DNA of 64,000 bases, taken from a phage. The notes beneath the pieces were generated by a model. The model saw only the letters and a list, made by a program, of their open reading frames with translations. It searched no databases and was not told where the DNA came from. Both the position numbers and the translations under genes were made by a program. How positions within the stretch are numbered: position 1 is the stretch's first letter; the number at the start of each line of letters is the position of its first letter. The stretch lies in NCBI GenBank assembly GCA_018027755.1, contig GCA_018027755.1_4098.1. One strand, written 5' to 3'. This document shows, piece by piece, positions 2,646-35,795 of this stretch.

Positions 2646-2654
2646 TTACATGTA

Positions 2655-2683: not shown

Positions 2684-2712
2684 AACTTAATATTCACCAC
2701 CGGAGATACGAT

Positions 2713-7889: not shown

Positions 7890-7959
7890 AATTCCCTCCT
7901 TTATTCATTATACTATATTTAACCAAAAAGAAAAGCCAGTACAGAGTACTGGCATTGTA
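7890..7959 (-). promoter_or_regulatory. array cassette boundary (terminator hairpin + TATAAT + AAGGAGG)
   Basis: Same conserved cassette as at 6465. Confidence 0.55.
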
Positions 7960-9093: not shown

Positions 9094-9166
9094 GATTTCT
9101 CTCCTTTATCCATTATACTATATTTAATACAAATAAGAAAGCCAGTACAGAGTACTGGCTTTTACA
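9094..9166 (-). promoter_or_regulatory. array cassette boundary
   Basis: Conserved hairpin/T-run/TATAAT/AAGGAG cassette. Confidence 0.55.
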
Positions 9167-10357: not shown

Positions 10358-10436
10358 AATTCCCCTCCTTATTCATTATACTATATTTAATACAAATAAG
10401 AAAGCCAGTATCAAGTACTGGCATAGTTTTATAGTA
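10358..10436 (-). promoter_or_regulatory. array cassette boundary
   Basis: Conserved cassette. Confidence 0.55.
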
Positions 10437-11546: not shown

Positions 11547-11554
11547 ATTCACTC

Positions 11555-12730: not shown

Positions 12731-12801
12731 ATTTCCTCCTTTATTCATTATACTATATTTAATACAAAAAGAAATGCCAGTATCAAGTACTGGCCTATAT
12801 T
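12731..12801 (-). promoter_or_regulatory. array cassette boundary
   Basis: Conserved cassette. Confidence 0.55.
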
Positions 12802-13539: not shown

Positions 13540-13611
13540 AATTCCCTCCTTTATTCATTATAATATATTTAATACAAAAAAGAAAAGCCAGTACAAAGTA
13601 CTGGCATTATA
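13540..13611 (-). promoter_or_regulatory. array cassette boundary
   Basis: Conserved cassette. Confidence 0.55.
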
Positions 13612-14802
13612 TTATAACTGTCTTGGAGTATCCAGTACATATCTATTTGTACGAGGACCACCATCATCATCAGTTCCTGTTGAATATATATTTTTCATAT
13701 CAGCAGTTAGGAAAGTACGATACGAACCGCGATATATTTTAATTTTATCATACATAGAATATGTTATTTCTGACGGCAATGGACATGCAGTAAATTTACC
13801 AATGGTAACATTAGAACCAACACCCAATGTGCCAGCATAACTACTCGCATTTAAACCAGTTGCATATACACCTGCACTCGTAACTAGTATACTAGATTGT
13901 GTTGGGTATCCAGTATGAATTGAATACAAAGTACCGGGTGGTAAGGTTGTACTATTATTTCCTAAAACTCCATTAACAGTGCTAGATGTAGTTTTATTTC
14001 CCCATGCTCCATTATTAGCTAATCCACCAACTAGAAACTGACGTGCTCCTGTATTTGGATTCTCCACCAAAGCACTGACTGAACCCATTGAGCATCCAGT
14101 GTATTGTAACGTTTTTGTGTATGTGGTACTTGGCTGATATAAAGTATATTCATTATATAAAGTCCATGTAGTGCTGGAACTTATACCGGATGTACCACCA
14201 CCAATATATAAATTATTTTGTGTATCAAAAAACATTGCACAGCTATTTGTTGACATTATTTGTGCAATATCAACATCTGGTGTTACAGCTTTAACAAATG
14301 AACCATCGGTTATTTGTTGAGTTTTTCCAGTACCATCAGCGAATTGTTTAGCCCCACTCCACCCAGTACTCCATATTGTATTATTATCCATTAAGAAAGT
14401 AAACCATGTAGTACCTGCATACATCTGTTTAATTGAAGTACTTGAACTTTGTTTGTACAATTTTTCAATATATTGGTTATAACTTAAAAATGATGTAGTA
14501 CTAGTTTCTAAACCAATATAACCACCATAGCCACAATAAAAATAATTTAAGTCCTTATCTTGTACTAACAAAGTTCCTTCTGACATCCAACAATCGTTAA
14601 CGTTTTCTCTAATTAATGTCCATGTTCTTAATGCAGTGTTGTTTCCTCTCCCAAACTTCCCAAAACTATTATTGCCTCGTGCGTATAGTTGACCATCAGT
14701 ATAAAGTACAACAACATCACTATTGATTGGTATTATTTTCTTAATTTGAAGAGGCTCAGGTGTAATATTTCCATAATCAAACATTCTAACAAAAGGTAAC
14801 AT
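13612..14802 (-). CDS. MLPF-leader RCC1-like beta-propeller repeat protein (396 aa)
   Basis: Track ORF 13612..14859 trimmed to MLPF ATG; leader MLPFVRMFDYGN; body near-identical to 9167..10357. Confidence 0.75.
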   Translation of the reverse strand: MLPFVRMFDYGNITPEPLQIKKIIPINSDVVVLYTDGQLYARGNNSFGKFGRGNNTALRTWTLIRENVNDCWMSEGTLLVQDKDLNYFYCGYGGYIGLETSTTSFLSYNQYIEKLYKQSSSTSIKQMYAGTTWFTFLMDNNTIWSTGWSGAKQFADGTGKTQQITDGSFVKAVTPDVDIAQIMSTNSCAMFFDTQNNLYIGGGTSGISSSTTWTLYNEYTLYQPSTTYTKTLQYTGCSMGSVSALVENPNTGARQFLVGGLANNGAWGNKTTSSTVNGVLGNNSTTLPPGTLYSIHTGYPTQSSILVTSAGVYATGLNASSYAGTLGVGSNVTIGKFTACPLPSEITYSMYDKIKIYRGSYRTFLTADMKNIYSTGTDDDGGPRTNRYVLDTPRQL

Positions 14803-14873
14803 ATTTCCTCCTTTATTCATTATACTATATTTAATACAAAAAAGAAAAGCCAGTATCAAGTACTGGCCTATAT
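14803..14873 (-). promoter_or_regulatory. array cassette boundary
   Basis: Conserved cassette. Confidence 0.55.
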
Positions 14874-16043
14874 TTAAACTGGCGAATCTAATATAAATTC
14901 TAAACTACTAATGCCACCATATGTGACATCTGTTCCCGTGCTATATACAAAATTACCATCAGTTATATAAGTTCGGTTATAACTACCTGCCATCTGTGAC
15001 TTACTATAATCAAACCCATCAGGTACGATTGCTTTGGTATATACTAATGCATTAGTAGATGTACCAATACCTAACATACCAGCTTGTGTAGATTGATTGT
15101 AGCCGCAACAATATATACCATCTGTTGTAGCAATAACTTGGTTATAATATGAAGTATTGTTAGCAATGCTTACTACATCACCAGGTGGCATTAGTGATGC
15201 TGTTTGTACCTCAAATGCTCTATAATCTTTGAGAGAACCATCTTTCCCATCTGCTTGTGCACCAAATATTCTTGAACCACCATTTGCGATGATAGTTTTA
15301 CCAGTGGGATCAGTGCCTATTGCCATTGCCATTGAAGTACCATTATTCACATAGTACTTTATATTAATTGTATTACTTAAGCTGGTAGGAGCACCATAAT
15401 ATATATTATATAACTTACTTCCTGAACTTGTAACTGCATTGACTCTTCCTGTATAAAATAACCATCCTTGGTTTGTAACATAACCGTGCATTAAATTACT
15501 TGCAAACAATTTAACAGGTAATTGATTTGCTGCGGTAGGAACAGTACTTTTGACGAATCTACCAGAAACATGGTTAATTGTTGTCCCATCACCCAACTGA
15601 CCATCCGACCCTACTCCAGTACTCCATATTGTTTGGTCTGATAGTAACACACTTGTAGTCTGATAACTAACGGCTATATCTAATATTGGTAATGTTAATG
15701 TATTGAATATAGGCATAGCAGATGTCCATATTGATACTCCTGACCCTTTCATACCAACAGTTGTTGAACTTCCACTGTACCATATTTCATTATTGCTTTT
15801 CTTAACAACTATCGACGTGGCTCCCATCCAAAAATCTTCAACACCAGAAGTACTAAAAGTCCATGTAGTAACAGTATTTTTGTGACCTAAACCCAAAATA
15901 CCATATGCATTATCACCACGCACATATAAATCACCACTGTTTGTTAAAACAGCAACATTATAGTTGTTAGCAAGTATTTTTTTAATATTTGGTTTAGCAG
16001 GTGCAATATTCCCGTAATCAAACAATCTCACAAAAGGTAACAT
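14874..16043 (-). CDS. MLPF-leader RCC1-like beta-propeller repeat protein (389 aa)
   Basis: Track ORF trimmed to MLPF ATG; leader MLPFVRLFDYGN; SGDLYVRGDNAYGILGLG repeats. Confidence 0.7.
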   Translation of the reverse strand: MLPFVRLFDYGNIAPAKPNIKKILANNYNVAVLTNSGDLYVRGDNAYGILGLGHKNTVTTWTFSTSGVEDFWMGATSIVVKKSNNEIWYSGSSTTVGMKGSGVSIWTSAMPIFNTLTLPILDIAVSYQTTSVLLSDQTIWSTGVGSDGQLGDGTTINHVSGRFVKSTVPTAANQLPVKLFASNLMHGYVTNQGWLFYTGRVNAVTSSGSKLYNIYYGAPTSLSNTINIKYYVNNGTSMAMAIGTDPTGKTIIANGGSRIFGAQADGKDGSLKDYRAFEVQTASLMPPGDVVSIANNTSYYNQVIATTDGIYCCGYNQSTQAGMLGIGTSTNALVYTKAIVPDGFDYSKSQMAGSYNRTYITDGNFVYSTGTDVTYGGISSLEFILDSPV

Positions 16044-16114
16044 AATTCCTCCTTTATTCATTATACTATATTTACCCCAAAAAGAAATGCCAGTACTTGA
16101 GTACTGGCATTATG
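16044..16114 (-). promoter_or_regulatory. array cassette boundary
   Basis: Conserved cassette. Confidence 0.55.
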
Positions 16115-17224
16115 TTATTTTGGTAAATCAATTTTAGTAAAGACTGCAACATCTGCACTTGCACCTGGAATGGCGTAATACGATCCAGTACTATATACAT
16201 TCCCGTCTTTGGTTAATAATGATGTTAATCCGTCACTAAAAGCAACATCACTAATCTCACTAACTTCTACAGGTAATTGTAAATTAGCAGCACTATAGAT
16301 AGCACCCGTTTGAGAATTGTTTAATCCCAAACCACGGTTTCCCCCAATACCTTTCTGATATGCACTAGTTAATATAATTTGCGTAGCCGTGCTTGTTGCC
16401 TCTGAATTTGTCATAAACAAAGGTGAATTATTAGGTAAAGTACTTACAGGAACTGCTTTGAATGTAGTTGAATCTGAACTAAGAAAGTTTGGAGTTGTAC
16501 CACATGTGAAATATGATGTACCATTATAGTAATTGAGTGTATGTCCACCAATAGCTGCATCTATTACACCAGAACTACGCAGTCCCCAAATGTTAACTTG
16601 TGTTCTGTTCCCTGTGCCATGTAATCCACGGTCATTCCACCCTGAACTATATAACTTATTATCTATGCTAATATACATACTATCATTAGGAGTAGACATA
16701 ACTTTACGCACATTAGAAGCACATAGTGTTAATGTATATATTGATGAAGAACCAATCCCCAATACACCACGGTATCCATTAGCCCCAGCACCATAGAGTA
16801 CTGAACTTGAACTGAGTACAAATATTACACCACCATTGCATACAATATTAGCAATTTGATTCACAGGAATTGTATTTGTAAACCACTCCGTTCTATCAAC
16901 TAATGTAGTACTGTAAGAAGTTGTTGATGATGATGTGAACCAAAATGTTTCACCTGATGTCCATATCGTATTGTCATTTTTAATAATAACAAGTGTTCGT
17001 CCTCCAGTGAAAAAATTAGAAACATCTGCACTTACTAATGTCCAAGAAGATACCGTGTTTTTATTACCATTTCCAGATTCACCACCTTGATTTCTGCCTA
17101 TGTAATACAATTCATGTGAATCAGTCAATACGAATTGACCTTGAGTAGAAGCACCAACTTTAATTATATTTTTAGGACCAGAGGTAATATTCCCATAATC
17201 AAATAGTCTTACAAAAGGTAACAT
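16115..17224 (-). CDS. MLPF-leader RCC1-like beta-propeller repeat protein (369 aa)
   Basis: Track ORF trimmed to MLPF ATG; leader MLPFVRLFDYGN; RBS 8 nt after upstream gene stop. Confidence 0.7.
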   Translation of the reverse strand: MLPFVRLFDYGNITSGPKNIIKVGASTQGQFVLTDSHELYYIGRNQGGESGNGNKNTVSSWTLVSADVSNFFTGGRTLVIIKNDNTIWTSGETFWFTSSSTTSYSTTLVDRTEWFTNTIPVNQIANIVCNGGVIFVLSSSSVLYGAGANGYRGVLGIGSSSIYTLTLCASNVRKVMSTPNDSMYISIDNKLYSSGWNDRGLHGTGNRTQVNIWGLRSSGVIDAAIGGHTLNYYNGTSYFTCGTTPNFLSSDSTTFKAVPVSTLPNNSPLFMTNSEATSTATQIILTSAYQKGIGGNRGLGLNNSQTGAIYSAANLQLPVEVSEISDVAFSDGLTSLLTKDGNVYSTGSYYAIPGASADVAVFTKIDLPK

Positions 17225-17232
17225 AATTCCTC

Positions 17233-18435
17233 CTATTGTTGCCATAACTGCGTTGGCATTAATGTTAGTGTAGTAATACTATAAGTGCCATCAGGCAATC
17301 TACCACCATTACCATTCCAGCCACCACATGCATATAATTTATAATCTTTAGTAATTATTATGGTTCTGCTCCAATCTTTAGATGCCATAAGAACATTGTC
17401 ATAACCACCACTTATTGCATTAAGATTAAAAATATTCCAAGTCCTAACTAATGTATTAGTTCCATTACCTTCTTGACCGTATCCGTTAGCACCACTACTT
17501 CTAACATATGGTGCGTATTGTGCCATAGGTGCACCAATTGATGCATTTCCCATATTACTTGGACAAATAAAAGTACTGTACTTACTTACATCAACCGTGA
17601 CCGATGTGTTCCTAATTGGTGTTAGCTGATTTACCGATGTAGTCGTACCATTACCAGCTTGTCCAGTACTGTTAGCCCCGCTATAATATACAGGCCCACC
17701 AGTAGTAAACCACCAAGTAACATCGTATGTAGTACTAATATGTTCGACATCACTCATCACATATTTGTTCAAATATATCATAGAACTAGCACCACAACCA
17801 CTTTCACCGAAGTTATCCTTACCACAAAACCATGCCTTTTTATTTGATTTAATATAGTGCGTTCCTTGTAATGAACATGCCATATGTGTAACTTCACCCA
17901 TATTAGTCATAACTGTTAGTGTAGGTATGGAATTTTGATTACCAGACCCACATTCACCATTGGTATTTCTTCCACACGCAATTACTCTACCATCGGTTAA
18001 TAATATTCTAGTACTTTCACCTATATATACACTCTTGATCATATTAGCCATAACACCAATTTTATTAAATGAAGCAGTAACATCAGTCCATGTTCTCAAA
18101 TAACCATTAACAGGTGTTGCATCTCCATAATCAGAAAATGCACCAACCGACCCAGTGTAGTATATTTTATTATCCAAATCAATCATCAATGAACCTTGAA
18201 CACCAAGCCAAAAGGCTGCACATCGCGTTGCAAGTACTGTAAATGACGCAACTGCTGCTGAATTCCCAAGACCAAATTGATAAAAGTTATTACTACCATA
18301 ACCATATAAAGTATTAGTTGGGCTATGTAGATACATACAGTTTGTATAATGTTGTTGTAAAACATCTGAGAACTCTACAGGTTCTGGACCTGGTGCAATA
18401 TTTGCGTACTTAACCATTCGTGCAAAAGGTAACAT
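17233..18435 (-). CDS. MLPF-leader RCC1-like beta-propeller repeat protein (400 aa)
   Basis: ORF track; leader MLPFARMVKYAN. Confidence 0.7.
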   Translation of the reverse strand: MLPFARMVKYANIAPGPEPVEFSDVLQQHYTNCMYLHSPTNTLYGYGSNNFYQFGLGNSAAVASFTVLATRCAAFWLGVQGSLMIDLDNKIYYTGSVGAFSDYGDATPVNGYLRTWTDVTASFNKIGVMANMIKSVYIGESTRILLTDGRVIACGRNTNGECGSGNQNSIPTLTVMTNMGEVTHMACSLQGTHYIKSNKKAWFCGKDNFGESGCGASSMIYLNKYVMSDVEHISTTYDVTWWFTTGGPVYYSGANSTGQAGNGTTTSVNQLTPIRNTSVTVDVSKYSTFICPSNMGNASIGAPMAQYAPYVRSSGANGYGQEGNGTNTLVRTWNIFNLNAISGGYDNVLMASKDWSRTIIITKDYKLYACGGWNGNGGRLPDGTYSITTLTLMPTQLWQQ

Positions 18436-18507
18436 ATTTCCCTCCTTTATTCATTATACTATATTTAATACAAAAAGAAATGCCAGTATCAAGTACTGGC
18501 ATAGTAT
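18436..18507 (-). promoter_or_regulatory. array cassette boundary
   Basis: Conserved cassette. Confidence 0.55.
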
Positions 18508-19635
18508 TCAAAAAGGTAAATCAATTTGCTTAGTAATAATAGTATCTAACGGTATTGAACACAATGAGAAATTCTTTCCACCCGTATTTTTAGGATTATA
18601 TCCATTCATCCATACATTATTACCTTCGTAAAATGTATTCCAGTATAAAGACCCACTATATCGTGTATTCGAATTGAACGATGTAAAATTGAATTCTTGA
18701 AATGCTGTAAAATATGGAAGGGAACTTGAACTACTTCCCGTAAATGGGGTATGCCCAGTTGCTATTAGTTTGTTTGTATCTGCATTAATTAAAAATACAA
18801 CACTAGTCGAATAGTCCAACGAATCAGGATGATATATATTACTCATATCACCTATAGTAAAACCAACATCAAAAACTTTACTATGTGCACCACTACCAGC
18901 AAAAGTAGTTCCAGTTGCATATATTTTATTATCAGATGTTATCATTACAAAACCAACACCAGAAACAAAACTGCATTTTATATCATAAGATATATCATCA
19001 AACAACGGAACAAATGTGGTTGCATCACCCGATGTTGCTTTAACTTGAAAGCTGTTATTTGAACCTGAACCATATACAGTTCCATCGTTTTTAATCTTAA
19101 ACAATGTATCGCCAAGGTAACCGCCAAATATATTATCCACATTAGTGTCAAGTACAGTCCACGCTGAAACATAATTTTTATGTCCTAAACCTAATGCACC
19201 ACTTCGATTCCATCCTCTTCCATAAAGTGTTCCGTCTTTCATTAATATAAATGCTGTATAACCACATAACATTTTTTTAATTTGGGTAACATCTATACCA
19301 GTGAAATACACAGCCCAGTCAGTATATCCTTGTTGGAAAGTATTAGAATTCGTGAATGCATATGTTGAACCTGAACCATATATTTTATCACCTTTAATAA
19401 CAACGGAAAACGATCCTAACCATAAGTCATCAACTTCAGTTGTGATTTGTTGAACTGCTCCTAACGATACAAACTTTGTACTTAAACCCGCATTATAGTT
19501 TGAATCTTCACCGTGTGCATATACAGTGCCATCTTGCATTAGAAACATTTCAAGAGTGTAACTAACAACACTTTTCTTTATATTATTAACTTCGATTATA
19601 TTCCCATAATCAAACATTCTAACAAAAGGTAACAT
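18508..19635 (-). CDS. MLPF-leader RCC1-like beta-propeller repeat protein (375 aa)
   Basis: ORF track; leader MLPFVRMFDYGN. Confidence 0.7.
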   Translation of the reverse strand: MLPFVRMFDYGNIIEVNNIKKSVVSYTLEMFLMQDGTVYAHGEDSNYNAGLSTKFVSLGAVQQITTEVDDLWLGSFSVVIKGDKIYGSGSTYAFTNSNTFQQGYTDWAVYFTGIDVTQIKKMLCGYTAFILMKDGTLYGRGWNRSGALGLGHKNYVSAWTVLDTNVDNIFGGYLGDTLFKIKNDGTVYGSGSNNSFQVKATSGDATTFVPLFDDISYDIKCSFVSGVGFVMITSDNKIYATGTTFAGSGAHSKVFDVGFTIGDMSNIYHPDSLDYSTSVVFLINADTNKLIATGHTPFTGSSSSSLPYFTAFQEFNFTSFNSNTRYSGSLYWNTFYEGNNVWMNGYNPKNTGGKNFSLCSIPLDTIITKQIDLPF

Positions 19636-19707
19636 AATTCCCTCCTTTATTCATTATACTTTATTTAATACAAATAAGAATTCCTGTATCGAGTACTGGC
19701 ATTCAAT
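19636..19707 (-). promoter_or_regulatory. array cassette boundary
   Basis: Conserved cassette. Confidence 0.55.
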
Positions 19708-20856
19708 TTATTGTAAAAAGGACATATCTACTTCTGTATAACTAAGAATGTTTTGACCAGCAATTCCACCCATTACTACTATTGCATACCCACAATAATA
19801 TAATTTCCCAGTGTCCGTAAGTATAAGTGAACCAGAAGGTGTTCTTACCAAATTACACGAACTATTAAAAGAAGTATACGAAGGAGTATAGGAGTACTGA
19901 TTAATATTATTACCAACACCTAATTGACCACCCCTATTCGAACCAGATGCATAAAGTACTTCATCTGCTTTGACAATATGTGATGCCATGTTAGCAACAC
20001 ATGCATATACACCATATACCCCTGTACTCAATAATGTAGGAGTCTTGTATTGAATATCAGTACTAGTAGATGTTCCACCTGTGCCAAATTCATTACCATA
20101 TTGTGCTCCGTACTGCTTCCCACATGCGTACAAATTATTATCCGATTTGATAAAAAATGTACTCTGATAACTTACATCAAAATCTATAACATCCGAAGAA
20201 ATCATCGTTACCCCAGTAATCGAAGTTTGATTACCAGTACCCAACTGGTAGTAATAGTTAAAACCACAACCCCATAAAGTATTATCTTCTCGCAAATAAA
20301 TGTTACCAACAGCCTTTTTAACAGATGTTATAGTACTGACCTTCTTGAATGTATTAAATGAATCAATGTTAGTACCATCTCCAAAGGAGGATATGTTCGA
20401 TGCGTTATTAGCACCACAACAATATAATGTCCCATCCTTCAGTACTAAATTTACCTTCATATCATTAAAACTGCTCATGTACTCAATATCAGATACACTA
20501 ATACCACCTGATGTTATCCACGTAGTACAGTCCGTCCATAACGTCTTCCTATCAGTTACCCCAGTAAATGCCTTCGTGTTACCAGTGATAAACACTTTAC
20601 CAGTACCCTTTTCTTCATACAATTGACAATCACTACTGTTATCTTCCAATAAAACCCTCTGTACATTCTCTGCACAAAGAATAAATTTACTCGAAGCTAC
20701 TCCTGTACCAGTACCCCAATTCGTCGCAGAAGATGCATACAACTTGTGTGTTAGTGTATCATGCAAATACATAGAACCACTAGAATATATTTTAAAACGC
20801 CCTTCTTTCTCAGGTATAATATTCCCATAATCAAACATTCTAACAAAAGGTAACAT
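19708..20856 (-). CDS. MLPF-leader RCC1-like beta-propeller repeat protein (382 aa)
   Basis: Track ORF trimmed to MLPF ATG; leader MLPFVRMFDYGN. Confidence 0.7.
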   Translation of the reverse strand: MLPFVRMFDYGNIIPEKEGRFKIYSSGSMYLHDTLTHKLYASSATNWGTGTGVASSKFILCAENVQRVLLEDNSSDCQLYEEKGTGKVFITGNTKAFTGVTDRKTLWTDCTTWITSGGISVSDIEYMSSFNDMKVNLVLKDGTLYCCGANNASNISSFGDGTNIDSFNTFKKVSTITSVKKAVGNIYLREDNTLWGCGFNYYYQLGTGNQTSITGVTMISSDVIDFDVSYQSTFFIKSDNNLYACGKQYGAQYGNEFGTGGTSTSTDIQYKTPTLLSTGVYGVYACVANMASHIVKADEVLYASGSNRGGQLGVGNNINQYSYTPSYTSFNSSCNLVRTPSGSLILTDTGKLYYCGYAIVVMGGIAGQNILSYTEVDMSFLQ

Positions 20857-20958
20857 ATTTCCTCCTTTATTCATTATATCATATTTACCCCATAAACAAA
20901 ACCCTTGACAACCTTCCAGTACTGATGTACTATAGAAGGAATATAAGGAGAACTACAC
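20857..20958. promoter_or_regulatory. divergent promoter region
   Basis: Minus-strand cassette promoter/RBS for 19708..20856; plus-strand TTGACA-N17-TACTAT and TAAGGAG before ATG 20959. Confidence 0.5.
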
Positions 20959-21186
20959 ATGACAAATACTCTTAAGTACTACCTCAATACTCTAAATGAA
21001 CTAGAGTACGCGAAGTTTCTCGCGGATAGTTCGTGGCTAATTGAGCTAAAAACACATAACAGTACTGGATGTAACCTAATGCTGAACAATGCACTTGATA
21101 CCCTTGTAGTGAGTATTTTACACAGCAACATCTGCGGGGATAGAAACAAACAATTATCAAAAATCTTAGTACTGCTATCTATATGA
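20959..21186 (+). CDS. small protein, tandem family A
   Basis: ORF track; first of a run of 59-75-aa paralogs. Confidence 0.5.
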   Translation: MTNTLKYYLNTLNELEYAKFLADSSWLIELKTHNSTGCNLMLNNALDTLVVSILHSNICGDRNKQLSKILVLLSI

Positions 21187-21386
21187 ATATCGAACAGTAC
21201 TACATCGATGCACTACCAACAAAAGGTCTACGTGAAAGCCTACTGCATACACAAACTAATTTCAAACACCTCAAACGTAGCCCTAAACTCCTGAACTCGT
21301 ACAGGAATAATAACATAAGAAATGCTTTACAAGGGGTAGAATGTATGCAATACTATTACATCCTTACCCTATTAATCGAGTACTAA
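21183..21386 (+). CDS. small protein, tandem family A
   Basis: ORF track; ATGA overlap; C-terminal L-x-L-I-x-Y-like tail. Confidence 0.55.
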   Translation: MNIEQYYIDALPTKGLRESLLHTQTNFKHLKRSPKLLNSYRNNNIRNALQGVECMQYYYILTLLIEY

Positions 21387-21387
21387 T

Positions 21388-21597
21388 ATGAATACTGAAC
21401 ATAAAGAATTCTACACCAAATACCTTAGCAACGAAGAACAATTGTTTCTAAGGAGTGTATCACCTGTAAGTACCAATACTCAATTCGGTAGAGATTGCTT
21501 TAATAATTGTATACGTAGTACTCTAGAAGCAATCGAATGCAATAACAAAAATATTATGTACTCAGGTTTAATAGGACTAATATATTTCTATGAATAA
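21388..21597 (+). CDS. small protein, tandem family A
   Basis: ORF track; MNTEHKEFYTKYLS..; close paralog of 24340..24549. Confidence 0.6.
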   Translation: MNTEHKEFYTKYLSNEEQLFLRSVSPVSTNTQFGRDCFNNCIRSTLEAIECNNKNIMYSGLIGLIYFYE

Positions 21598-21784
21598 TCA
21601 TAAAGATTTCTATTGTAGTAAACTACCCAAACAAGAACAGCTATCATTCTCTTTAGCACCACCTATGAGAAAGGATAATCTGTATTATAATTACGATTTC
21701 AGGATGGTGACACGTTATGCAATAGAACATCAGTTCCCTGAAACTAAGTACCGCTCTATCCTGAACCTCATCTTTAAGTTCTAA
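21590..21784 (+). CDS. small protein, tandem family A
   Basis: ORF track; MNNHKDFY.. N-terminus. Confidence 0.55.
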   Translation: MNNHKDFYCSKLPKQEQLSFSLAPPMRKDNLYYNYDFRMVTRYAIEHQFPETKYRSILNLIFKF

Positions 21785-21836
21785 AAGGTACACCAGGGAC
21801 CGAGTACTTTAATATAGTAAGGCTAATTACATTATA

Positions 21837-22022
21837 ATGAATCATATAAGCTACTACTACCAACAACTATCCGACAGAGACAAGTACAGTCACAACTCCC
21901 ATGTGTGGTACTACAAACGCGGCAGTATAAGAGACAAACAACATTACTTCTGTATTTCTATTAAAGAAGCACTGACAACTAAGTACACGTACCGAGCAGT
22001 ACTTAAACTAATCTCTATTTGA
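21837..22022 (+). CDS. small protein, tandem family A
   Basis: ORF track; ..YTYRAVLKLISI tail. Confidence 0.55.
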   Translation: MNHISYYYQQLSDRDKYSHNSHVWYYKRGSIRDKQHYFCISIKEALTTKYTYRAVLKLISI

Positions 22023-22030
22023 GGTAATAT

Positions 22031-22216
22031 ATGAATACATTTGAGTACTATACCAATAAACTATCTATGCCTGAAAGATCTCATCTCTATGTGTGGAGAA
22101 ATGCGTATAAAAGCGGCAATAAACTTATACAAAGAAATTCCCTTACAGTGTGTACAAATTTAATTAAAGCAGAGTACCGCACATATATTGAAGTACTGAA
22201 GCTGATAGCAATCTAA
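22031..22216 (+). CDS. small protein, tandem family A
   Basis: ORF track; ..YIEVLKLIAI tail. Confidence 0.55.
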   Translation: MNTFEYYTNKLSMPERSHLYVWRNAYKSGNKLIQRNSLTVCTNLIKAEYRTYIEVLKLIAI

Positions 22217-22224
22217 GGTACTCT

Positions 22225-22404
22225 ATGCAAGAATTCTATATCTATAACCTCCAGCACAAAGATAGATACAACTATAATAAATTCCAAAGGTACTACACAG
22301 TCGGGAACAAAAGAGATAAAAAACGATACTTTCTATCATGTACAGTAGAAGCACAAAACGAAAAGTACACGTACAGAGAAGTACTGAAACTCATCTCTAT
22401 GTAA
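22225..22404 (+). CDS. small protein, tandem family A (59 aa)
   Basis: Below track cutoff; MQEFYIYNLQ..YTYREVLKLISM read from sequence. Confidence 0.5.
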   Translation: MQEFYIYNLQHKDRYNYNKFQRYYTVGNKRDKKRYFLSCTVEAQNEKYTYREVLKLISM

Positions 22405-22412
22405 GGAATAAT

Positions 22413-22592
22413 ATGCAAGAATACTATATAGAACACATAAGCATTAAAGACCGTTTCATGTACGACACCTTCGTGAAGTACTACAACCTGGCAACTAACA
22501 GTACTAAAAATATTAATCTCAATAGCTGCATTCATCACGCACTAACAAAAGATAATCCCTTCAGGGAAATCCTCGCACTAGCATCTGTATAA
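22413..22592 (+). CDS. small protein, tandem family A (59 aa)
   Basis: Track ORF 22338..22592 trimmed to MQEYYIEHIS.. Confidence 0.5.
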   Translation: MQEYYIEHISIKDRFMYDTFVKYYNLATNSTKNINLNSCIHHALTKDNPFREILALASV

Positions 22593-22602
22593 AGGAAACC
22601 AA

Positions 22603-23262
22603 ATGAAACTTAATGCACACAGCAAACAATACCTTAAGCACTTTAAGTACCTCAACAGTATTCAAGCAGAATCTTTTACACCAGCATATACGTATCACCC
22701 TAATGTACTAAAGAAACGAAATAAAAAGAAAAAATCCAGAAATGTTCTCGTATCTAAGAACCTCAAATCGTACTTGAAGAAAAATAATATAGCTCTTGCT
22801 TTTATTAATATCTATAATACTGATTTAAAAGTATTGAGTACTAATACCAGCACAAAAGCACTAAAGAATGCATCTATCTATATACACATGGATAATATCC
22901 CGTGCACTATAATTCTATCTTTCGGGAATGTATACTTCTTCGGGAATTGTAATAGCACCCATGATATCAGTACTGCACAATTCCAAATCGGAGATATGTA
23001 CTGCATGGGTTCAGAAAAAATACACGATAACATGCACTTCTTCCAAAAGCAACGTACTAACGAAACTGATACAGTACTGCAATTCCTCAAAGAATTACAA
23101 AACAAAGAATTATCCGAGGAAGAAGAATTCATGTACAGTACTGTAATCGATAATCCAGAACTCTATAAAAACGCGTACAAACTAACAAAACATGTACAGG
23201 AACTTATCAGTACTGATAAGAAATTTCATCACCTCATTACGTATATTTCAAACTATGTATAA
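22603..23262 (+). CDS. hypothetical protein (219 aa)
   Basis: ORF track; GGAAAC RBS; no similarity to flanking family A. Confidence 0.55.
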   Translation: MKLNAHSKQYLKHFKYLNSIQAESFTPAYTYHPNVLKKRNKKKKSRNVLVSKNLKSYLKKNNIALAFINIYNTDLKVLSTNTSTKALKNASIYIHMDNIPCTIILSFGNVYFFGNCNSTHDISTAQFQIGDMYCMGSEKIHDNMHFFQKQRTNETDTVLQFLKELQNKELSEEEEFMYSTVIDNPELYKNAYKLTKHVQELISTDKKFHHLITYISNYV

Positions 23263-23386
23263 AGAATACTAAAATTATCTATAATGAATTAATGAAAGAA
23301 TGTATTAAAGGTGCTATTAACCCTAAAGATACGTATGACTTGTACTATGCAGTACTAACCCTTGTTTTCACGAAATAACACATAAT

Positions 23387-23578
23387 ATGAATAACCACAA
23401 AGAATACTACATAGAGAAACTCCCAATGTATCTCCAACACCTTGTACCAACAGAACCATTGGGTATAGAAAAAAACTACGAAAAAGACTACTTCATTCAG
23501 TGCACTAAATCCTCGATATATATTGAAGACTATAATCGAGTACTGTATCACATCCTTTTACTAATATATAGGTACTAA
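23387..23578 (+). CDS. small protein, tandem family A
   Basis: ORF track; MNNHKEYYIEKLP...LLLIYRY. Confidence 0.6.
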   Translation: MNNHKEYYIEKLPMYLQHLVPTEPLGIEKNYEKDYFIQCTKSSIYIEDYNRVLYHILLLIYRY

Positions 23579-23579
23579 T

Positions 23580-23762
23580 ATGCACAAAGAATACTACACA
23601 CAATTTCTCCCCAGCATTTTTGAACACTACGCCAGATACAAAGTCCCTATGGATAACGATTTGGCAGTACTGGGATTCAATAACTGCATAGAACGAAGTA
23701 TAGAAAATAGTAGTAGTTATGACCAGCTATATAACACTATCCTACTTATATTCAGGTACTAA
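23580..23762 (+). CDS. small protein, tandem family A
   Basis: ORF track; MHKEYYTQFLP...ILLIFRY. Confidence 0.6.
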   Translation: MHKEYYTQFLPSIFEHYARYKVPMDNDLAVLGFNNCIERSIENSSSYDQLYNTILLIFRY

Positions 23763-23763
23763 T

Positions 23764-23952
23764 ATGCATAAAGAATACTACACAAAATATTTCCCAATGT
23801 ACCTCAGTACTAATCTATTAGATAAACCTCGCGGTATCAATGCACAAAACGATAAAGTGTACTTTACTATGTGCACTAAAGCATGTATACTAGATTTTGA
23901 CAGCTATCATCGAGTACTGTATCATACCCTGTACCTAGCTTTCGTATTCTAA
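23764..23952 (+). CDS. small protein, tandem family A
   Basis: Track ORF 23719..23952 trimmed to MHKEYYTKYFP.. Confidence 0.55.
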   Translation: MHKEYYTKYFPMYLSTNLLDKPRGINAQNDKVYFTMCTKACILDFDSYHRVLYHTLYLAFVF

Positions 23953-23961
23953 AAGAACAAT

Positions 23962-24147
23962 ATGCATAAAGAATTCTACTTAAGCCATCTCGATCTAAAC
24001 TCCCAAATGCTTATACCACTAATCCCAATAGATATCAAGGATAAGAAAAATACCGAACAATTCATTTACCATACACAGTGTGCGATCACCCCAAATTACA
24101 TTCCATATGAATTGTACTACATTATCGCCCTAATATATAGGTACTAA
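23962..24147 (+). CDS. small protein, tandem family A
   Basis: ORF track; MHKEFYLSHL...ALIYRY. Confidence 0.6.
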   Translation: MHKEFYLSHLDLNSQMLIPLIPIDIKDKKNTEQFIYHTQCAITPNYIPYELYYIIALIYRY

Positions 24148-24148
24148 T

Positions 24149-24334
24149 ATGCATAGAGAATACTACACACAATTTGTTAAAGGGAACTACAAACATGCCG
24201 TACCCAGAACCCCTTTAAATTCTCATGACCCAAGTACTATATTCTTGTTTAATGACGCAATACGTACAGTACTCAATACTAAAGATGAAGATGTGCAGTA
24301 CGTATTCTTACTATTACTTATATACAGACACTAA
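24149..24334 (+). CDS. small protein, tandem family A
   Basis: ORF track; MHREYYTQFV...LLLIYRH. Confidence 0.6.
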   Translation: MHREYYTQFVKGNYKHAVPRTPLNSHDPSTIFLFNDAIRTVLNTKDEDVQYVFLLLLIYRH

Positions 24335-24339
24335 CTAAT

Positions 24340-24549
24340 ATGAATAAAGAACATAAAGAATTCTACTCCAAATACATAAGCCCCTCAGAACAAATGTTTC
24401 TAAGAACTACTCCACCTTTAAGTACTAATACATTTTTCGGCAGAGTATGCTACAATAATTGTATTCAAATGACTTTAAACGCAAACGAAGATGGTAACAG
24501 TACTAACCTGTACTCAGGTATCATAGGTATACTATTCCTGTATGAATAA
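24340..24549 (+). CDS. small protein, tandem family A
   Basis: ORF track; paralog of 21388..21597. Confidence 0.6.
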   Translation: MNKEHKEFYSKYISPSEQMFLRTTPPLSTNTFFGRVCYNNCIQMTLNANEDGNSTNLYSGIIGILFLYE

Positions 24550-24730
24550 TTTCAAAGACTTCTATTTGAATACACTACCTACTGTACTTTCTCTAAGTGC
24601 TCAATGTAAAATCCCGCTGGATAATGCTTACGCCAGATATAGCTATTCCATAACTGTTAATCGATGTATAGAGAATCATTGCAGTACTAACCAGTACTAT
24701 AACATAATCCTACTTATATTCAGGTACTAA
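24542..24730 (+). CDS. small protein, tandem family A
   Basis: ORF track; MNNFKDFYLNTLP...ILLIFRY. Confidence 0.6.
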   Translation: MNNFKDFYLNTLPTVLSLSAQCKIPLDNAYARYSYSITVNRCIENHCSTNQYYNIILLIFRY

Positions 24731-24731
24731 T

Positions 24732-24914
24732 ATGAATAAAGAACATAAAGAATTCTATATACGAAAACTAACATTCGTCCCCGTAAGAATATATAAAGAA
24801 TGCGACCCAAGATTATACCTATGGCACTTCAATGAGTGCATAAAAGATTCTATATACCATAAGAACTATAAAGAACAATTGTGCTCAGTACTAACACTAG
24901 TACTATCATATTAA
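24732..24914 (+). CDS. small protein, tandem family A
   Basis: ORF track; MNKEHKEFYIRKL.. Confidence 0.6.
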   Translation: MNKEHKEFYIRKLTFVPVRIYKECDPRLYLWHFNECIKDSIYHKNYKEQLCSVLTLVLSY

Positions 24915-24929
24915 TTAATAGAGAATACT

Positions 24930-25121
24930 ATGTATAAAAACTTCTATATAAGTAAACTAAAAGAAAATGAACAAGTATGGATTAGATCTATAATTCCACT
25001 GGCATTTAATAGATATGCATTTAACAGATGTACCGAGATTGCTATAGACCCTTATAATATTAAAGAGAATGTACAGTATAATCAGTACTACTATATCTTA
25101 ATGCTTATATATAGAAAGTAA
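24930..25121 (+). CDS. small protein, tandem family A
   Basis: ORF track; MYKNFYISKL...LMLIYRK. Confidence 0.55.
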   Translation: MYKNFYISKLKENEQVWIRSIIPLAFNRYAFNRCTEIAIDPYNIKENVQYNQYYYILMLIYRK

Positions 25122-25532
25122 TTAAACACATAGAGACAGGGGAAGCTCCTAGTGAACAACCTTTATGTACAGGCGAATTGTTAAAATTCAGCCTGGACAA
25201 ATGCGATCACTAGGATTCTCCCCAGGCTAAACCCCGTAATCATAGGTAGTCATAAGTAATCATATATAAACATTTATATGAGCACCGTAGAATCACAGAA
25301 TGATTATATATGATTCAGTACTGATTAGTATAGACAAGATTGCTCAAGAATGCACGGAAATGTGTGTGAATGATTCAGTACTGATATCCCACTAAGTAGG
25401 CAGAGGAAGTCTGCCGTACTTTGTAGTTTCCAAGCTCCTTTTCCATTTTGCAAATTACATCAAATGTAATCAAAAGTAATCACACAATGATTAGTACTGA
25501 ATTATTACTTTCACCTTAATTACAATTACCCT

Positions 25533-25550
25533 TTTACCCTTCGGGGTAAA
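25533..25550 (+). other. stem-loop with TTCG tetraloop
   Basis: TTTACCC-TTCG-GGGTAAA perfect inverted repeat in ORF-free hub. Confidence 0.35.
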
Positions 25551-26169
25551 ATTCCATTACCCCTTGAGGCTCCAGCAAAAAGTTGGTTAGTACTCCATCC
25601 TAAATCTCGATCCTAAAAATTTTGGAGTACCTATGAAATAAAAGTTGGATCTTCGAAAGTTGAAATTTACGTTGGGACGTTTATGATTTGTGGGATATAA
25701 TGATGTTTGTAGTCGGGTAGTTCTCAAGAATATCAGTACTGAATGATGAAAGAAAGCTATTGACTTTATGATTCAGTACTGTATAATGTTTTACATAGAG
25801 AGATGAGTTGCCGCAAACAATTCATTCACTCTACTTCCTGTCGTGAGACAGTACAGAAAGATAGTTCCTCCTATGGGTGGTACATCTTTTAGAACCTCTT
25901 TTTTCGTAATATGAACAGTACTGATATTAACAGAATGGTGTCAGTACTGATTTTAATTTAATGCATTATGCCACCAGCACAAGCTGGTGGATTCCCTCTA
26001 ACAGTATTCAGTACTACATGATGGTCTTCATCCTCCTAGGGTAACATAGTGAGGGCTATGATGGCAGTACTGAATACTCCCTTTCAAAAGATAGATCTAT
26101 GGTATAGTACTGACGGATTTTGGGCGTAGTTACCCTGGATGGATTTTGGGCGTAGATATGTCTAGCCCT

Positions 26170-26320
26170 CCAGAAGTCTGGAAGTAAAGATGGCTATCCA
26201 TCTAGACGGCTAAACGGCTAGATTTCTGGATGGCTGGATGGCTGGATGGCTGGATGGCTAGACGTTTGGACGGCTAAACGGCTAGATGGTTACACGTCTG
26301 GAAGTATAGACGGCTAAATC
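26170..26320. repeat. iteron-like tandem/symmetric repeat block
   Basis: CTGGATGG x4 in tandem (26226-26258) flanked by repeated GACGGCTAAACGGCTAGA and TCTGGAAGTA-AGA-GGCTA units. Confidence 0.6.
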
Positions 26321-26499
26321 AAAATTTTATTTTGTTTTTTCCAATAGTTCCCCTACCGCGTGGGGATAGTTTCCCCGCAGTATCTGGAGTTAGATTTTTC
26401 TGAATCTGGAATCATTATCTTATAAACTGGGGGCAATGTCAACGACCTGGTCGGATATTTTTAAAAATTTTTTCAGTACTGAATTTTGGGCGTAACTAT

Positions 26500-26514
26500 G
26501 CACCCGGTGGGCTT
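26500..26514 (+). repeat. motif-2 copy (GCACCCGGTGGGyT)
   Basis: Reverse complement of motif-1 core; preceded by GAATTTTGGGCGTAA. Confidence 0.5.
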
Positions 26515-26661
26515 GAGTCTTTCTCGACTTGATGGAACTATTATACAGTACTGAAAAAATAAAGCAATACCCTGGAAGCAAAAAAATTTTAATTAATTTG
26601 CTTGCTATCCTGGGCCGGACTATGGTACTATATTTCAGTACTGAGAAAGTGCGTTTGCCTG

Positions 26662-26681
26662 CTAGGGTGCGGGAGTGTATC
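26662..26681 (+). repeat. motif-1 copy (..AGGGTGCGGGAGTGTATC)
   Basis: Conserved 20-25-nt element, one of 7 copies. Confidence 0.5.
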
Positions 26682-26715
26682 CTTTTTTTATATCTTGAAT
26701 TTTGGGCGTAATTCC

Positions 26716-26730
26716 GCACCCCCTGGGGTT
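26716..26730 (+). repeat. motif-2 copy
   Basis: GCACCCCCTGGGGTT; about 50 nt downstream of motif-1 copy. Confidence 0.45.
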
Positions 26731-26936
26731 TCCGCTTTCTCGCGTCTATGTAGTAATTATACGCTTTTTCAGGATCAAGTCAATACCTAAAAACAAAATA
26801 ATTGAAAATAATTTAACGCGTTTAAACGGCCCGTAAAGCCCTGGAATGATTGGAATGGTGCAAATGTATAGCTTAGGTGTATTAATGCGTTAGAATGCGT
26901 CTGAGGCCGTTTTACGGGGTATAGGGATGATTTAGT

Positions 26937-27031
26937 GGATTGATTCAGTACTGAATAATAGTACTCCTATATAGAAAGATAGTTCCCCTGGATTGATTCA
27001 GTACTGAATAATAGTTCCCCTATATAGAAAG
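26937..27031 (+). repeat. about 42-bp direct repeat x2 containing palindrome TCAGTACTGA
   Basis: GGATTGATTCAGTACTGAATAATAGT.CC.TATATAGAAAG at 26937 and 26990, just upstream of first early promoter. Confidence 0.6.
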
Positions 27032-27063
27032 AAAACTATTTTAAAAGTATTTGTAGAAAGTAC

Positions 27064-27091
27064 TTGCACAGTACTGAAAAAAGCGTATAAT
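27064..27091 (+). promoter_or_regulatory. early promoter (TTGCAC-N16-TATAAT)
   Basis: -35 27064-27069, -10 27086-27091; followed by GTTTTACATC and GGGAA-CAC-TTCCC hairpin. Confidence 0.6.
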
Positions 27092-27145
27092 GTTTTACAT
27101 CGAGAGCGGGAACACTTCCCTACTCACTTTTAAGAGATTAAAACG

Positions 27146-27508
27146 ATGGCGACTCAAATCACTAAAATCATTGCTAACCTGGTTAACTTCCGCGACGATA
27201 TGAAAGATCTTCCGGCGGCAACGGTTAAAACTCACATTGACGCATACCGCGAACTGATTAAAATGCTGCCGCTTAAGCGTGAACAATACGCCGCCACCGT
27301 GATGCTTGATGCGATGATCCATAAGATGATCGCCAGTGATTTGACGATGGTTTATCAGTATATGGGCGAAAATTTCGCGGTGTATAGTAAACCAGTACCA
27401 GGAATGGAAAGTACAGAAGTATTACACGGTTTAAATTTAAAACAAGATGCATGGGATAATATGCCTCGTTTCCTGGTATGGGCTGACAGTGGCAAAATTT
27501 ACGAATAA
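27146..27508 (+). CDS. hypothetical protein (120 aa)
   Basis: ORF track; promoter + 5' hairpin upstream; E. coli-like codons. Confidence 0.65.
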   Translation: MATQITKIIANLVNFRDDMKDLPAATVKTHIDAYRELIKMLPLKREQYAATVMLDAMIHKMIASDLTMVYQYMGENFAVYSKPVPGMESTEVLHGLNLKQDAWDNMPRFLVWADSGKIYE

Positions 27509-27522
27509 GTTTTAGAAAGTAC

Positions 27523-27550
27523 TTGCAAACTAAGTTTAAAAGCGTATAAT
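27523..27550 (+). promoter_or_regulatory. early promoter (TTGCAA-N16-TATAAT)
   Basis: -35 27523-27528, -10 27545-27550. Confidence 0.6.
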
Positions 27551-27564
27551 GTTTTACATCAGGT

Positions 27565-27579
27565 GGGGAATAGTTCCCC
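27565..27579 (+). promoter_or_regulatory. 5'-proximal leader hairpin
   Basis: GGGGAA-TAG-TTCCCC immediately after predicted start site, before AGAGGA RBS. Confidence 0.5.
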
Positions 27580-27600
27580 ACTATATAAGAGGATTAAAAA

Positions 27601-27840
27601 ATGGCTAAATCAAAAATGTTCTTAGGTCACAAAAACAAAACTCATTGGAATGTAAGCCTTTGGATTAATAACGATGAGTCATTGTACCGGTTGGCCCTGG
27701 ACTTTATTGCCGCCAATACTAATCGCAATGATGCGGCCCGTCATATGATGTTATTTTTAGAACAGACTGGACAAGATAAAACACCGGACGGATTCAAATA
27801 TAGCACTACTGCGATCCGTGCGGCGATGGTTGGAATGTAA
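27601..27840 (+). CDS. hypothetical protein (79 aa), paralog of 29645..29884
   Basis: ORF track; shares GHKNKTHWNVSLWINNDESLYR and TPDGFKYSTTAIRAAMVGM with 29645..29884. Confidence 0.7.
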   Translation: MAKSKMFLGHKNKTHWNVSLWINNDESLYRLALDFIAANTNRNDAARHMMLFLEQTGQDKTPDGFKYSTTAIRAAMVGM

Positions 27841-27926
27841 TAGAATTTATTTAAAGTACTATCATTTTTTTGCGATAGTACTTTATAATAGTGTTTTATT
27901 CATACACCAACGATAAGGGCAACAGC

Positions 27927-28193
27927 ATGAATATTAAGTATTTTGCGACGCGTGAACAAGCTCGGATCGCCGCTCGCCAGGACGGGGCAACGTTTAAAGA
28001 TATGGGCGTACAATCGGAACGTGGTAAACGTTGGGCCATTGTAAAGCGTAGTACCGCCAGATCATTACAGTACTGGTTAGCGGCCTTAAAAAGTCCCGAT
28101 AGTGTATCGCGTCGAGTGGTAGAAATAAAGCTCGACCGAAAGGGCAACCGCGTGACCGTGTACCGTACTAAAAAGATTGCAGTACTTGAATAA
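27927..28193 (+). CDS. hypothetical protein (88 aa), paralog of 40612..41016
   Basis: Track ORF trimmed to ATG 27927; KYFATREQARIAAR and DRKGNRVTVY shared with 40612..41016. Confidence 0.6.
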   Translation: MNIKYFATREQARIAARQDGATFKDMGVQSERGKRWAIVKRSTARSLQYWLAALKSPDSVSRRVVEIKLDRKGNRVTVYRTKKIAVLE

Positions 28194-28200
28194 AAAGTAC

Positions 28201-28228
28201 TTGCAAACTATGTTTAATGGCGTATAAT
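28201..28228 (+). promoter_or_regulatory. early promoter (TTGCAA-N16-TATAAT)
   Basis: -35 28201-28206, -10 28223-28228. Confidence 0.6.
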
Positions 28229-28242
28229 GTTTTACATCGAGA

Positions 28243-28259
28243 GCGGGAACACTTCCCGC
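28243..28259 (+). promoter_or_regulatory. 5'-proximal leader hairpin
   Basis: GCGGGAA-CAC-TTCCCGC. Confidence 0.5.
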
Positions 28260-28281
28260 CTATAACCTGGAGTAATAAAAA

Positions 28282-28512
28282 ATGACTAATATGTATATGA
28301 CTGAAGTTAAAACCGTAAAAGATACTACCACGAATAAAACTACTTACTTACAGCGGATCTGCGGTGTATGGCAACGTATCAGCAAATCAAAGTACTTTAA
28401 ATTAACATCATATGCAAATCGTTCGGATTCATTCAGTACTGAAATAAAAGGTAATAAAGTACACCAATACGGCACTTATTATTATTACAGCCTGGACGCG
28501 ATTGCAGTATAA
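28282..28512 (+). CDS. hypothetical protein (76 aa)
   Basis: ORF track; GGAG RBS. Confidence 0.6.
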   Translation: MTNMYMTEVKTVKDTTTNKTTYLQRICGVWQRISKSKYFKLTSYANRSDSFSTEIKGNKVHQYGTYYYYSLDAIAV

Positions 28513-28680: not shown

Positions 28681-28764
28681 ATGGGGTATATTATGCCAGT
28701 ACTTGATAATGCTGTCAATACTTTTTTTTAATATTCAGTACTGAAAACTATTTTTAAAAAGTAC

Positions 28765-28792
28765 TTGTAAACTATGTTTAAAGGCGTATAAT
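28765..28792 (+). promoter_or_regulatory. upstream promoter P1 (TTGTAA-N16-TATAAT)
   Basis: First of two tandem promoters before 28943. Confidence 0.5.
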
Positions 28793-28801
28793 GTTTTACA
28801 T

Positions 28802-28881
28802 CAGGACGGGGAACGAAATAAGTAACTTCCCGTTAAGTAGCCCAGGAGTAAGGCACACGAAAAACTCCCCTGATAAAATAG
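28802..28881 (+). ncRNA. candidate about 80-nt leader/small RNA element, copy 1
   Basis: CAGGACGGGGAACGAAATAAG...CTCCCCTGATAAAATAG between promoters P1 and P2; second copy at 39430..39508 before an unrelated gene. Confidence 0.35.
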
Positions 28882-29554: not shown

Positions 29555-29566
29555 TTTAAAAAGTAC

Positions 29567-29594
29567 TTGCATACTAAGTTTAAAAGCGTATAAT
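29567..29594 (+). promoter_or_regulatory. early promoter (TTGCAT-N16-TATAAT)
   Basis: -35 29567-29572, -10 29589-29594. Confidence 0.6.
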
Positions 29595-29607
29595 ACTTTA
29601 TATCGAG

Positions 29608-29626
29608 GCGGGGAGTGGTTCCCCGC
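29608..29626 (+). promoter_or_regulatory. 5'-proximal leader hairpin
   Basis: GCGGGGA-GTGGT-TCCCCGC. Confidence 0.5.
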
Positions 29627-29644
29627 TCAAACGAGGATTTAAAA

Positions 29645-29884
29645 ATGGCTAGTACTAAAACTTATAACGGACACAAAAACAAAACTCATTGGAATGTAAG
29701 CCTTTGGATCAATAACGATGAATCATTATACCGGATTGCTCAAAATTGCATCGCACAAAGTAGAACTAAAGATATTGCTGCGGAATGTATGTACCGCAGA
29801 TTAAAAGCCAACGGTACTACTACAACGCCGGACGGCTTTAAGTATAGCACTACTGCGATCCGTGCTGCAATGGTTGGAATGTAA
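29645..29884 (+). CDS. hypothetical protein (79 aa), paralog of 27601..27840
   Basis: Track ORF trimmed to ATG 29645 after GAGGA RBS. Confidence 0.7.
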   Translation: MASTKTYNGHKNKTHWNVSLWINNDESLYRIAQNCIAQSRTKDIAAECMYRRLKANGTTTTPDGFKYSTTAIRAAMVGM

Positions 29885-29941
29885 TATTCAGTACTGAGAT
29901 AATGGCGGGTAATAGTTCCCGCCTTTACTGAGGGTTATCTA

Positions 29942-35672: not shown

Positions 35673-35795
35673 TATTATATAAGTATTGAGTACTGAAAAC
35701 TATTTTTAAAAAGTACTTGCAAACTATCTCAATTGGCGTATAATGTTTTACATCGCAAGGGGAAACGGTTTCCCCTGGTAATAAGGAAACAAATC

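Follow-up and report, generated by a model that had tools for sequence, protein, structure and literature searches.

Introduction

Blocks of early or host-takeover genes lying by long terminal repeats are familiar from large phages, as in the host-takeover module of the SPO1 terminal redundancy and the pre-early genes of T5. Terminal multigene families are found in large eukaryotic DNA viruses, for example the multigene families (MGF) of African swine fever virus (ASFV) and the host-range families of poxviruses, while ‘gene accordions’—recent tandem amplifications under selection—are known from poxvirus K3L and the tifA region of phage T4. The subject of this report is an array of small open reading frames (ORFs) at positions 20959–25121 of a 64,000-nucleotide (nt) stretch of phage DNA (GenBank assembly GCA_018027755.1, contig GCA_018027755.1_4098.1; the whole of this stretch is referred to as the window), which a preliminary description had presented as seventeen tandem paralogues of about 60 amino acids (aa). 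Window DNA is 90–98% identical to that of approximately 30 Asteriusvirus jumbo phages of Escherichia and Salmonella (e.g. 121Q, PBECO4, SP27 and E9.1), and its source is, judged from sequence, an Asteriusvirus (121Q/PBECO4-like) jumbo phage. In these relatives the array ORFs are all annotated ‘hypothetical protein’.

In the related phage PA5oct, genes of the terminal repeat show strong early transcription (PMC7318152), and in CBB, short ORFs adjoining and inside the terminal repeat carry clusters of RpoD-like promoters, in a region that the authors suspect serves early host takeover (PMC5259590). Both systems resemble the window array in having many very small genes by or in a terminal repeat, with promoters of RpoD-like type, putative in the case of the window, but their blocks consist mostly of unrelated genes, whereas the window array comprises sixteen paralogues of one scaffold in one operon. 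Early timing has been measured for PA5oct; for the window array we infer it, the parallels with PA5oct and CBB suggesting that it too would be transcribed early. In kind the array is familiar, small and early accessory genes being known close to the ends of other phage genomes, but its copy number and one-scaffold design are unusual.

The ASFV and poxvirus families share with the array an arrangement of tandem paralogues near a genome end, a copy number and gene content that vary between close isolates, and a much more conserved adjoining genome, but they have no sequence or fold relation to it, and the host of the array is bacterial. An immune-evasion or host-range role is established for some of the eukaryotic-virus families, whereas for the phage array it is only hypothesised here. 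Accordions are similar in that copy number shifts by recombination or deletion at repeated junctions, and the window does show a microhomology deletion; accordion copies, however, are near-identical and transient, whereas the array paralogues share only 20–45% identity, and every one of them is conserved in its orthologues. A recent accordion was rejected on these identities, even the closest pair, ORF3 and ORF15, reaching only 74% at the DNA level, and the array is instead an old, diversified repertoire. The family itself corresponds to phrog_11711 (PHROGs v4), an entry with no function, structure or array behaviour attached, which includes for example 121Q gp251–265 and phAPEC6 gp540c–547c, and whose profile misses ORF2 and ORFs 5–8.

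The reading that we favour, at a little short of an even chance, is that the array is an early, coupled operon of diversified small soluble helical binders, each for a different target, with host defence or takeover the most likely. A single operon would encode sixteen diverged, all-helical paralogues of ~60 aa, one unrelated small ORF and an unrelated 219-aa protein. Host RNA polymerase would read it early in infection, given one conserved sigma-70-type promoter whose class also abounds in the neighbouring terminal repeat. Built on a common scaffold, the proteins would make up a set of small soluble binders, every copy adapted to its own host target, most likely a host defence or takeover function, and an arms race with the host would drive turnover of the repertoire.

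Sixteen paralogues in a tightly packed array

The array contains 17 plus-strand ORFs of 59–75 aa (numbered 1–8 and 10–18), with intergenic space almost nil. Eleven of the 17 (ORFs 3, 4 and 10–18) match phrog_11711 over its full 62-position profile (E 1e-12 to 6e-28), and BLASTP among these core members gives pairwise E values down to 1e-31. They are ORF3 (21388–21597, 69 aa), ORF4 (21590–21784, 64 aa), ORFs 10–13 (23387–23578, 23580–23762, 23764–23952 and 23962–24147) and ORFs 14–18 (24149–24334, 24340–24549, 24542–24730, 24732–24914 and 24930–25121); ORFs 10–18, of 60–69 aa, match the core hidden Markov model (HMM) at 1e-22 to 1e-29. The N-terminal and tail motifs by which the preliminary description had defined the whole family are confined to these eleven, and do not extend to ORFs 5–8 (21837–22022, 22031–22216, 22225–22404 and 22413–22592; 59–61 aa), which have a LKLISI-type tail. 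These four form a subfamily (g2) whose members find one another by BLASTP (E 1e-4 to 1e-15) and cluster apart from the core.

The relationship between subgroups emerged from hhalign comparisons of non-overlapping subgroup profiles built from ten phages. Aligned full length to the core, the ORF5–8 group scored 94% probability (P 1.4e-7) and the group of ORF2 (21183–21386, 67 aa), a divergent family member of subgroup g4, scored 93% (P 3.4e-7). ORF1 (20959–21186, 75 aa), the first gene of the operon, scored ~1% probability at most with any of the three family subgroups and was rejected as a member. Since ORF1 shows no significant relation, the alignments favour a count of 16 paralogues, not the 17 first proposed. 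ORF1 orthologues are under purifying selection (ratio of non-synonymous to synonymous substitution rates, dN/dS, 0.35), and the gene is not present in JNE01 or Turkey5 in the ten-phage comparison. Within the family, ORFs 3/4 duplicate the two-gene unit of ORFs 15/16 (246 nt at 74% identity; BLASTP 1e-31 and 1e-11). When run over 765 six-frame segments of the 64-kb window, the family profile matched the array ORFs and one remnant, and no further copy.

The ‘back-to-back’ arrangement holds as regards tight packing, but the run is broken by an unrelated 219-aa gene (22603–23262, plus strand; phrog_29152, PHROG match 2.6e-114) and a half-deleted copy. What appears to be a 124-nt spacer between the 219-aa ORF and ORF10 is the C-terminal half of a family copy (23263–23378, plus strand; family profile 8e-9, its translation ending ...ECIKGAINPKDTYDLYYAVLTLVFTK*). 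Alignment with phage E9.1 shows a recent ~240-nt deletion between (A/G)TACTA microhomologies, which took out an entire copy together with the first half of the one after it. The 219-aa gene was found in each array examined and occurs only in the same phages as the array. Its product has no PDB or Pfam match, its AlphaFold model is unusable (predicted local distance difference test, pLDDT, 38), and a family-like domain within it was rejected, the best match to the family profiles, at 6.6 bits, not being significant.

Outside this lineage no relatives were detected. Pfam-A, NCBIfam and PADLOC gave no match above curated threshold, and the sole match in a PDB sequence search was a de novo designed helical repeat, of which no aligned stretch passed alone. 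When 1.84 billion representative proteins were searched exhaustively with the family profile, 32 clusters were returned, all of 57–69 aa and all from the same phage group; a widened, 41-sequence profile found nothing beyond that group, in proteins of 90 aa at most, and tblastn confined both subfamilies to the same 36 phage records. As far as searched, then, the family appears restricted to the Asteriusvirus lineage, where it is already in databases as hypothetical proteins. No description of it is given in the papers on Sharanji, fEgEco12, phAPEC6, PA5oct or CBB, and those on the first three phages make no mention of paralogues or tandem genes.

Selection and predicted fold

Pooled dN/dS among orthologues was 0.28 (Nei–Gojobori; 34 orthogroups, ten phages), with 0.16 in 18 conserved columns compared with 0.33 in variable columns, the latter value indicating that copy-specific residues are also maintained. 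The array ORFs are thus real genes under purifying selection. The preliminary description had left it to proper alignment to decide whether the family was conserved: similarity is far beyond chance (BLASTP to 1e-31), and purifying selection likewise speaks against a lack of conservation.

In the 114 distinct members, conservation falls on buried aromatic and aliphatic positions, namely Y7, Y8 (invariant), L12, F37, T/I41, I/L45, Y54, I57, L58, L60, I61 and Y64. The remaining columns are near random, and the loop at 14–36 and the exposed helix faces are almost wholly different between copies, although the surface of each copy is kept among that copy's orthologues. The pattern reads as a conserved core under a variable surface. 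AlphaFold2, supplied with an alignment of the 16 window paralogues only, modelled ORF10 with a pLDDT of 89.3 and a predicted template modelling score (pTM) of 0.74, placing helices at 3–9, 14–17, 30–45 and 49–62; the family fold is therefore confidently predicted to be small and all-helical. Compared with PDB and BFVD structures, the ORF10 model had no match above noise, BFVD giving family members only.

The same sequences bear on two suggestions that can be taken together and that we consider very improbable, namely that the proteins are zinc-binding mini-domains, as the preliminary description had envisaged, or small membrane proteins anchored by their hydrophobic tail. Many copies do have one or two Cys and the C-terminus is hydrophobic. 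A zinc ribbon or treble clef would call for four conserved Cys/His ligands, usually in two CxxC/CxxH pairs. Cys, however, occupies a single column, at 52%, with 66/114 members having one Cys and 17/114 none, and CxxC is absent from all 114, which tells against zinc binding. Nor does any of the 114 contain a segment of transmembrane length, as would be expected of a holin, spanin or Imm-like exclusion protein, the maximum over a 19-residue Kyte–Doolittle window being ≤1.25 against a threshold of 1.6, and in the ORF10 model the tail is the last helix of a packed bundle.

Translational coupling

Junctions within the array are of few types and agree with those first described: an ATGA overlap at ORF1/2 and TAAtATG, with its one-base spacer, at five junctions (ORF2/3, 10/11, 11/12, 13/14 and 16/17). 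To these can be added 8-nt overlaps at ORF3/4 and ORF15/16 and a few spacers of 5–15 nt. ORF8 and ORF12 start at 22413 and 23764, respectively, later than in the longest reading frame, each internal start having its own ribosome-binding site. AGG accounts for 30/39 Arg codons in the last three codons of the genes, compared with 44/330 in gene bodies (Fisher p = 2.5e-16), and in many copies this codon, which encodes the penultimate Arg, also serves as ribosome-binding site for the gene that follows, so that the conserved R-Y tail is partly a nucleotide signal. In this arrangement the array genes are packed for translational coupling.

Such junctions invite the view that the copies are dispensable passengers, kept by duplication and coupling and individually of little function, whose conserved ends represent junction DNA (ribosome-binding site, start region and recombination homology) and not protein function. 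The most conserved DNA is indeed the 40–70-nt junction over the tail codons, stop and start, the AGG tail codon is clearly under selection for ribosome binding, and copies are easily lost, as the ~240-nt deletion illustrates. We nevertheless regard passengers as improbable: even the variable middle columns have a dN/dS of 0.33, AlphaFold gives a confident fold from paralogue co-variation alone, and the conserved mid-protein residues F37, C40, T/I41 and I/L45 lie far from the junctions.

Directly 3′ of the last stop codon is a long RNA hairpin (25139–25223, plus strand; minimum free energy −35.7 kcal/mol, z = −3.45), with 0/200 shuffles folding as well. It lacks a T-run and is hence not a canonical intrinsic terminator, but may form the 3′ end of the operon transcript or stabilise that transcript. 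Rfam gave no match on 20500–27500.

Position beside the terminal repeat

Phage fEgEco12 has a direct terminal repeat of 20,993 bp, confirmed by restriction digests (PMC13070987). Its positions 1–3000 match window 25395–28400 at 95.7% (blastn), fEgEco12 position 1 corresponding to window 25395, and the window from 25395 to ~46400 is homologous to the repeat. By this homology the window spans the junction between unique region and repeat. The array would therefore be the last gene block of the unique region, ending at 25121, 274 nt from the repeat-homologous point, and transcribed towards the repeat; in fEgEco12, the array ends ~300 nt before the right-hand repeat. Location beside a long terminal repeat, one of the marks of an early module, is accordingly seen here. 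A GC-rich hairpin, GGCAGAGGAAGTCTGCC (25395–25415, plus strand), sits exactly on the repeat boundary.

A conserved predicted promoter and the CAGTACTG class

Upstream of ORF1 is a predicted sigma-70-type promoter, TTGACA-17-TACTAT with CAGTACTG in its spacer (20905–20933, plus strand); the ribosome-binding site AAGGAG comes after it, shortly before the start codon of ORF1. All ten phages compared, among them the divergent JNE01 and Turkey5, retain the −35 box, the −10 box and the Shine–Dalgarno sequence. A host sigma-70-type promoter is a second mark of an early module, and here its identification is a consensus match only. The array promoter is of the same class as seven other sites in the window, with the general form TTGACA/TTGCA...CAGTACTG TATAAT.

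On the other side of the promoter lie eleven tandem RCC1-like (beta-propeller) paralogues (6540–20874, minus strand), each preceded by a conserved junction of ~100 nt. The last of these genes probably starts at 20856 (MLPFVRMF..., after AAAGGAGG), not at 20874. A divergent promoter had been proposed between the two arrays. The conserved sigma-70-like promoter and AAGGAG do face the small-ORF array, but the RCC1-like gene has its own conserved upstream junction, and the arrays are therefore better described as back to back, with no obvious shared regulatory element.

Searched as CAGTACTGAT with ≤1 mismatch, the palindrome CAGTACTG has 94 matches in the window compared with 5.2 expected. Matches are densest at 20900–46500, with 2.0 per kb in the small-ORF array and 1.86 per kb in the repeat-homologous 21 kb, and nearly absent from the RCC1-like array (0.14 per kb) and from 46.5–61.9 kb (0.28 per kb beyond 46.4 kb). 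The palindrome often occupies the spacer of a sigma-70-like promoter, just before TATAAT, for example at 25760, 30211, 35130, 43463 and 45438. It may be a candidate operator for a dimeric regulator of early transcription. Four exact copies fall within 250 nt (22968–23215) in the 3′ part of the 219-aa gene, a cluster that could mark a site, internal to the array, from which its second half is regulated.

A palindrome more than tenfold over-represented needs a binder, and this, together with the small helical build of the proteins and the strongly basic character of several, raises the idea that they are small nucleic-acid-binding regulators, binding CAGTACTG in early promoters, for instance, or host DNA or RNA. 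Net charge is +5 to +6 in ORFs 5–7 and ranges from −7 to +10 over all members, some of which reach the upper value. The ORF10 model has no structural match to helix-turn-helix or other known small DNA-binding folds, and we think such a regulatory function improbable. The regulator, passenger, zinc-domain and membrane explanations are all weaker or refuted.

Turnover between phages

Comparison of copy number across related phages, as the preliminary description had advised, revealed variation: from 14 to 21 copies in ten phages, with ~50 types when copies are grouped at 65% identity. Copies near the 219-aa gene are less stable than the outer ones, and a metagenome contig has the same layout as the window array. 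Among sister phages the repertoire changes rapidly, copies being duplicated, deleted and replaced. In a comparison of this phage with JNE01, the two downstream repeat genes are 98% and 88% identical, in contrast to 20–59% for family members (best hits), 39% for the 219-aa protein and 24–33% for the RCC1-like proteins, making of both arrays a hypervariable island beside a conserved repeat.

This shared divergence supports the main rival explanation, in which the small proteins are chaperones, adaptors or partners of the adjacent RCC1-like proteins and the whole is one co-evolving host-range cassette. The two arrays are back to back in all genomes and metagenome contigs examined, both are hypervariable against JNE01 while the flanking repeat genes are 88–98% identical, and at least two RCC1-like proteins are virion components, the phAPEC6 virion proteome listing gp549 and gp551 as well as a 4.7-kDa protein. 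Family members, however, were not found in that proteome. Moreover, the arrays are on opposite strands, copy numbers are unpaired in the window (16–17 small genes compared with 11 RCC1-like), and the small-ORF promoter is of the terminal-repeat class, which, with the disparity in CAGTACTG density between the two arrays, suggests different timing. On balance we judge a partnership with the RCC1-like proteins unlikely.

The early binder operon that we favour faces difficulties of its own. Orthologues show purifying, not positive, selection, so that repertoire turnover is the sole source of any arms-race signal. Divergence is just as great in the RCC1-like array and the 219-aa gene (24–39% identity), and rapid change may characterise the island as a whole, perhaps with another cause. 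A generic scan detected 26 sigma-70-like sites compared with 27.4 in shuffled sequence; because this is no better than chance, the promoter argument rests on conservation and the shared CAGTACTG class, and the early timing that we infer from the promoter derives from its consensus match. A literature search found no transcriptome or functional study of an Asteriusvirus. All of these points weigh against the favoured reading.

A bolder version, which we put forward as speculation and consider rather less than probable, would make the array a germline-encoded binder library: one previously unseen mini-helical scaffold presenting ~50 or more distinct surfaces across the genus, with a separate defence system or variant of a host factor neutralised by each copy, and each phage holding its own selection of 14–21 copies. 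If real, such a library would be to phages what terminal multigene families are to large eukaryotic viruses. Were the copies host-directed binders, the locus would supply dozens of natural small inhibitors on one 60-residue scaffold and, if they are host-directed, a genetic handle on host range in jumbo coliphages now considered for therapy. The locus also offers a clean case for the growth and shrinkage of a phage multigene family, in which a single junction is at once protein tail, ribosome-binding site and recombination substrate.

Features beyond the array

Downstream of the array, 25122–27145 is a 2-kb region without an ORF above ~100 aa and dense in CAGTACTG promoter-like sites. Within it, at 26173–26316, is an array of an 8-nt tandem unit (GATGGCTG/GACGGCTA). 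The region could have a packaging, replication or regulatory function.

Between the genes of the repeat-homologous region are recurring sequences of 50–340 nt with 74–92% identity (27046–27120, 27510–27608, 28181–28289, 28753–28814, 29555–29886, 35705–35766, 42641–42711 and 45848–45908), and a metagenome relative (L013) has two DUF7249 genes in the corresponding region. The recurring sequences and the DUF7249 pair suggest that the terminal repeat contains more paralogue families and repeated promoter cassettes.

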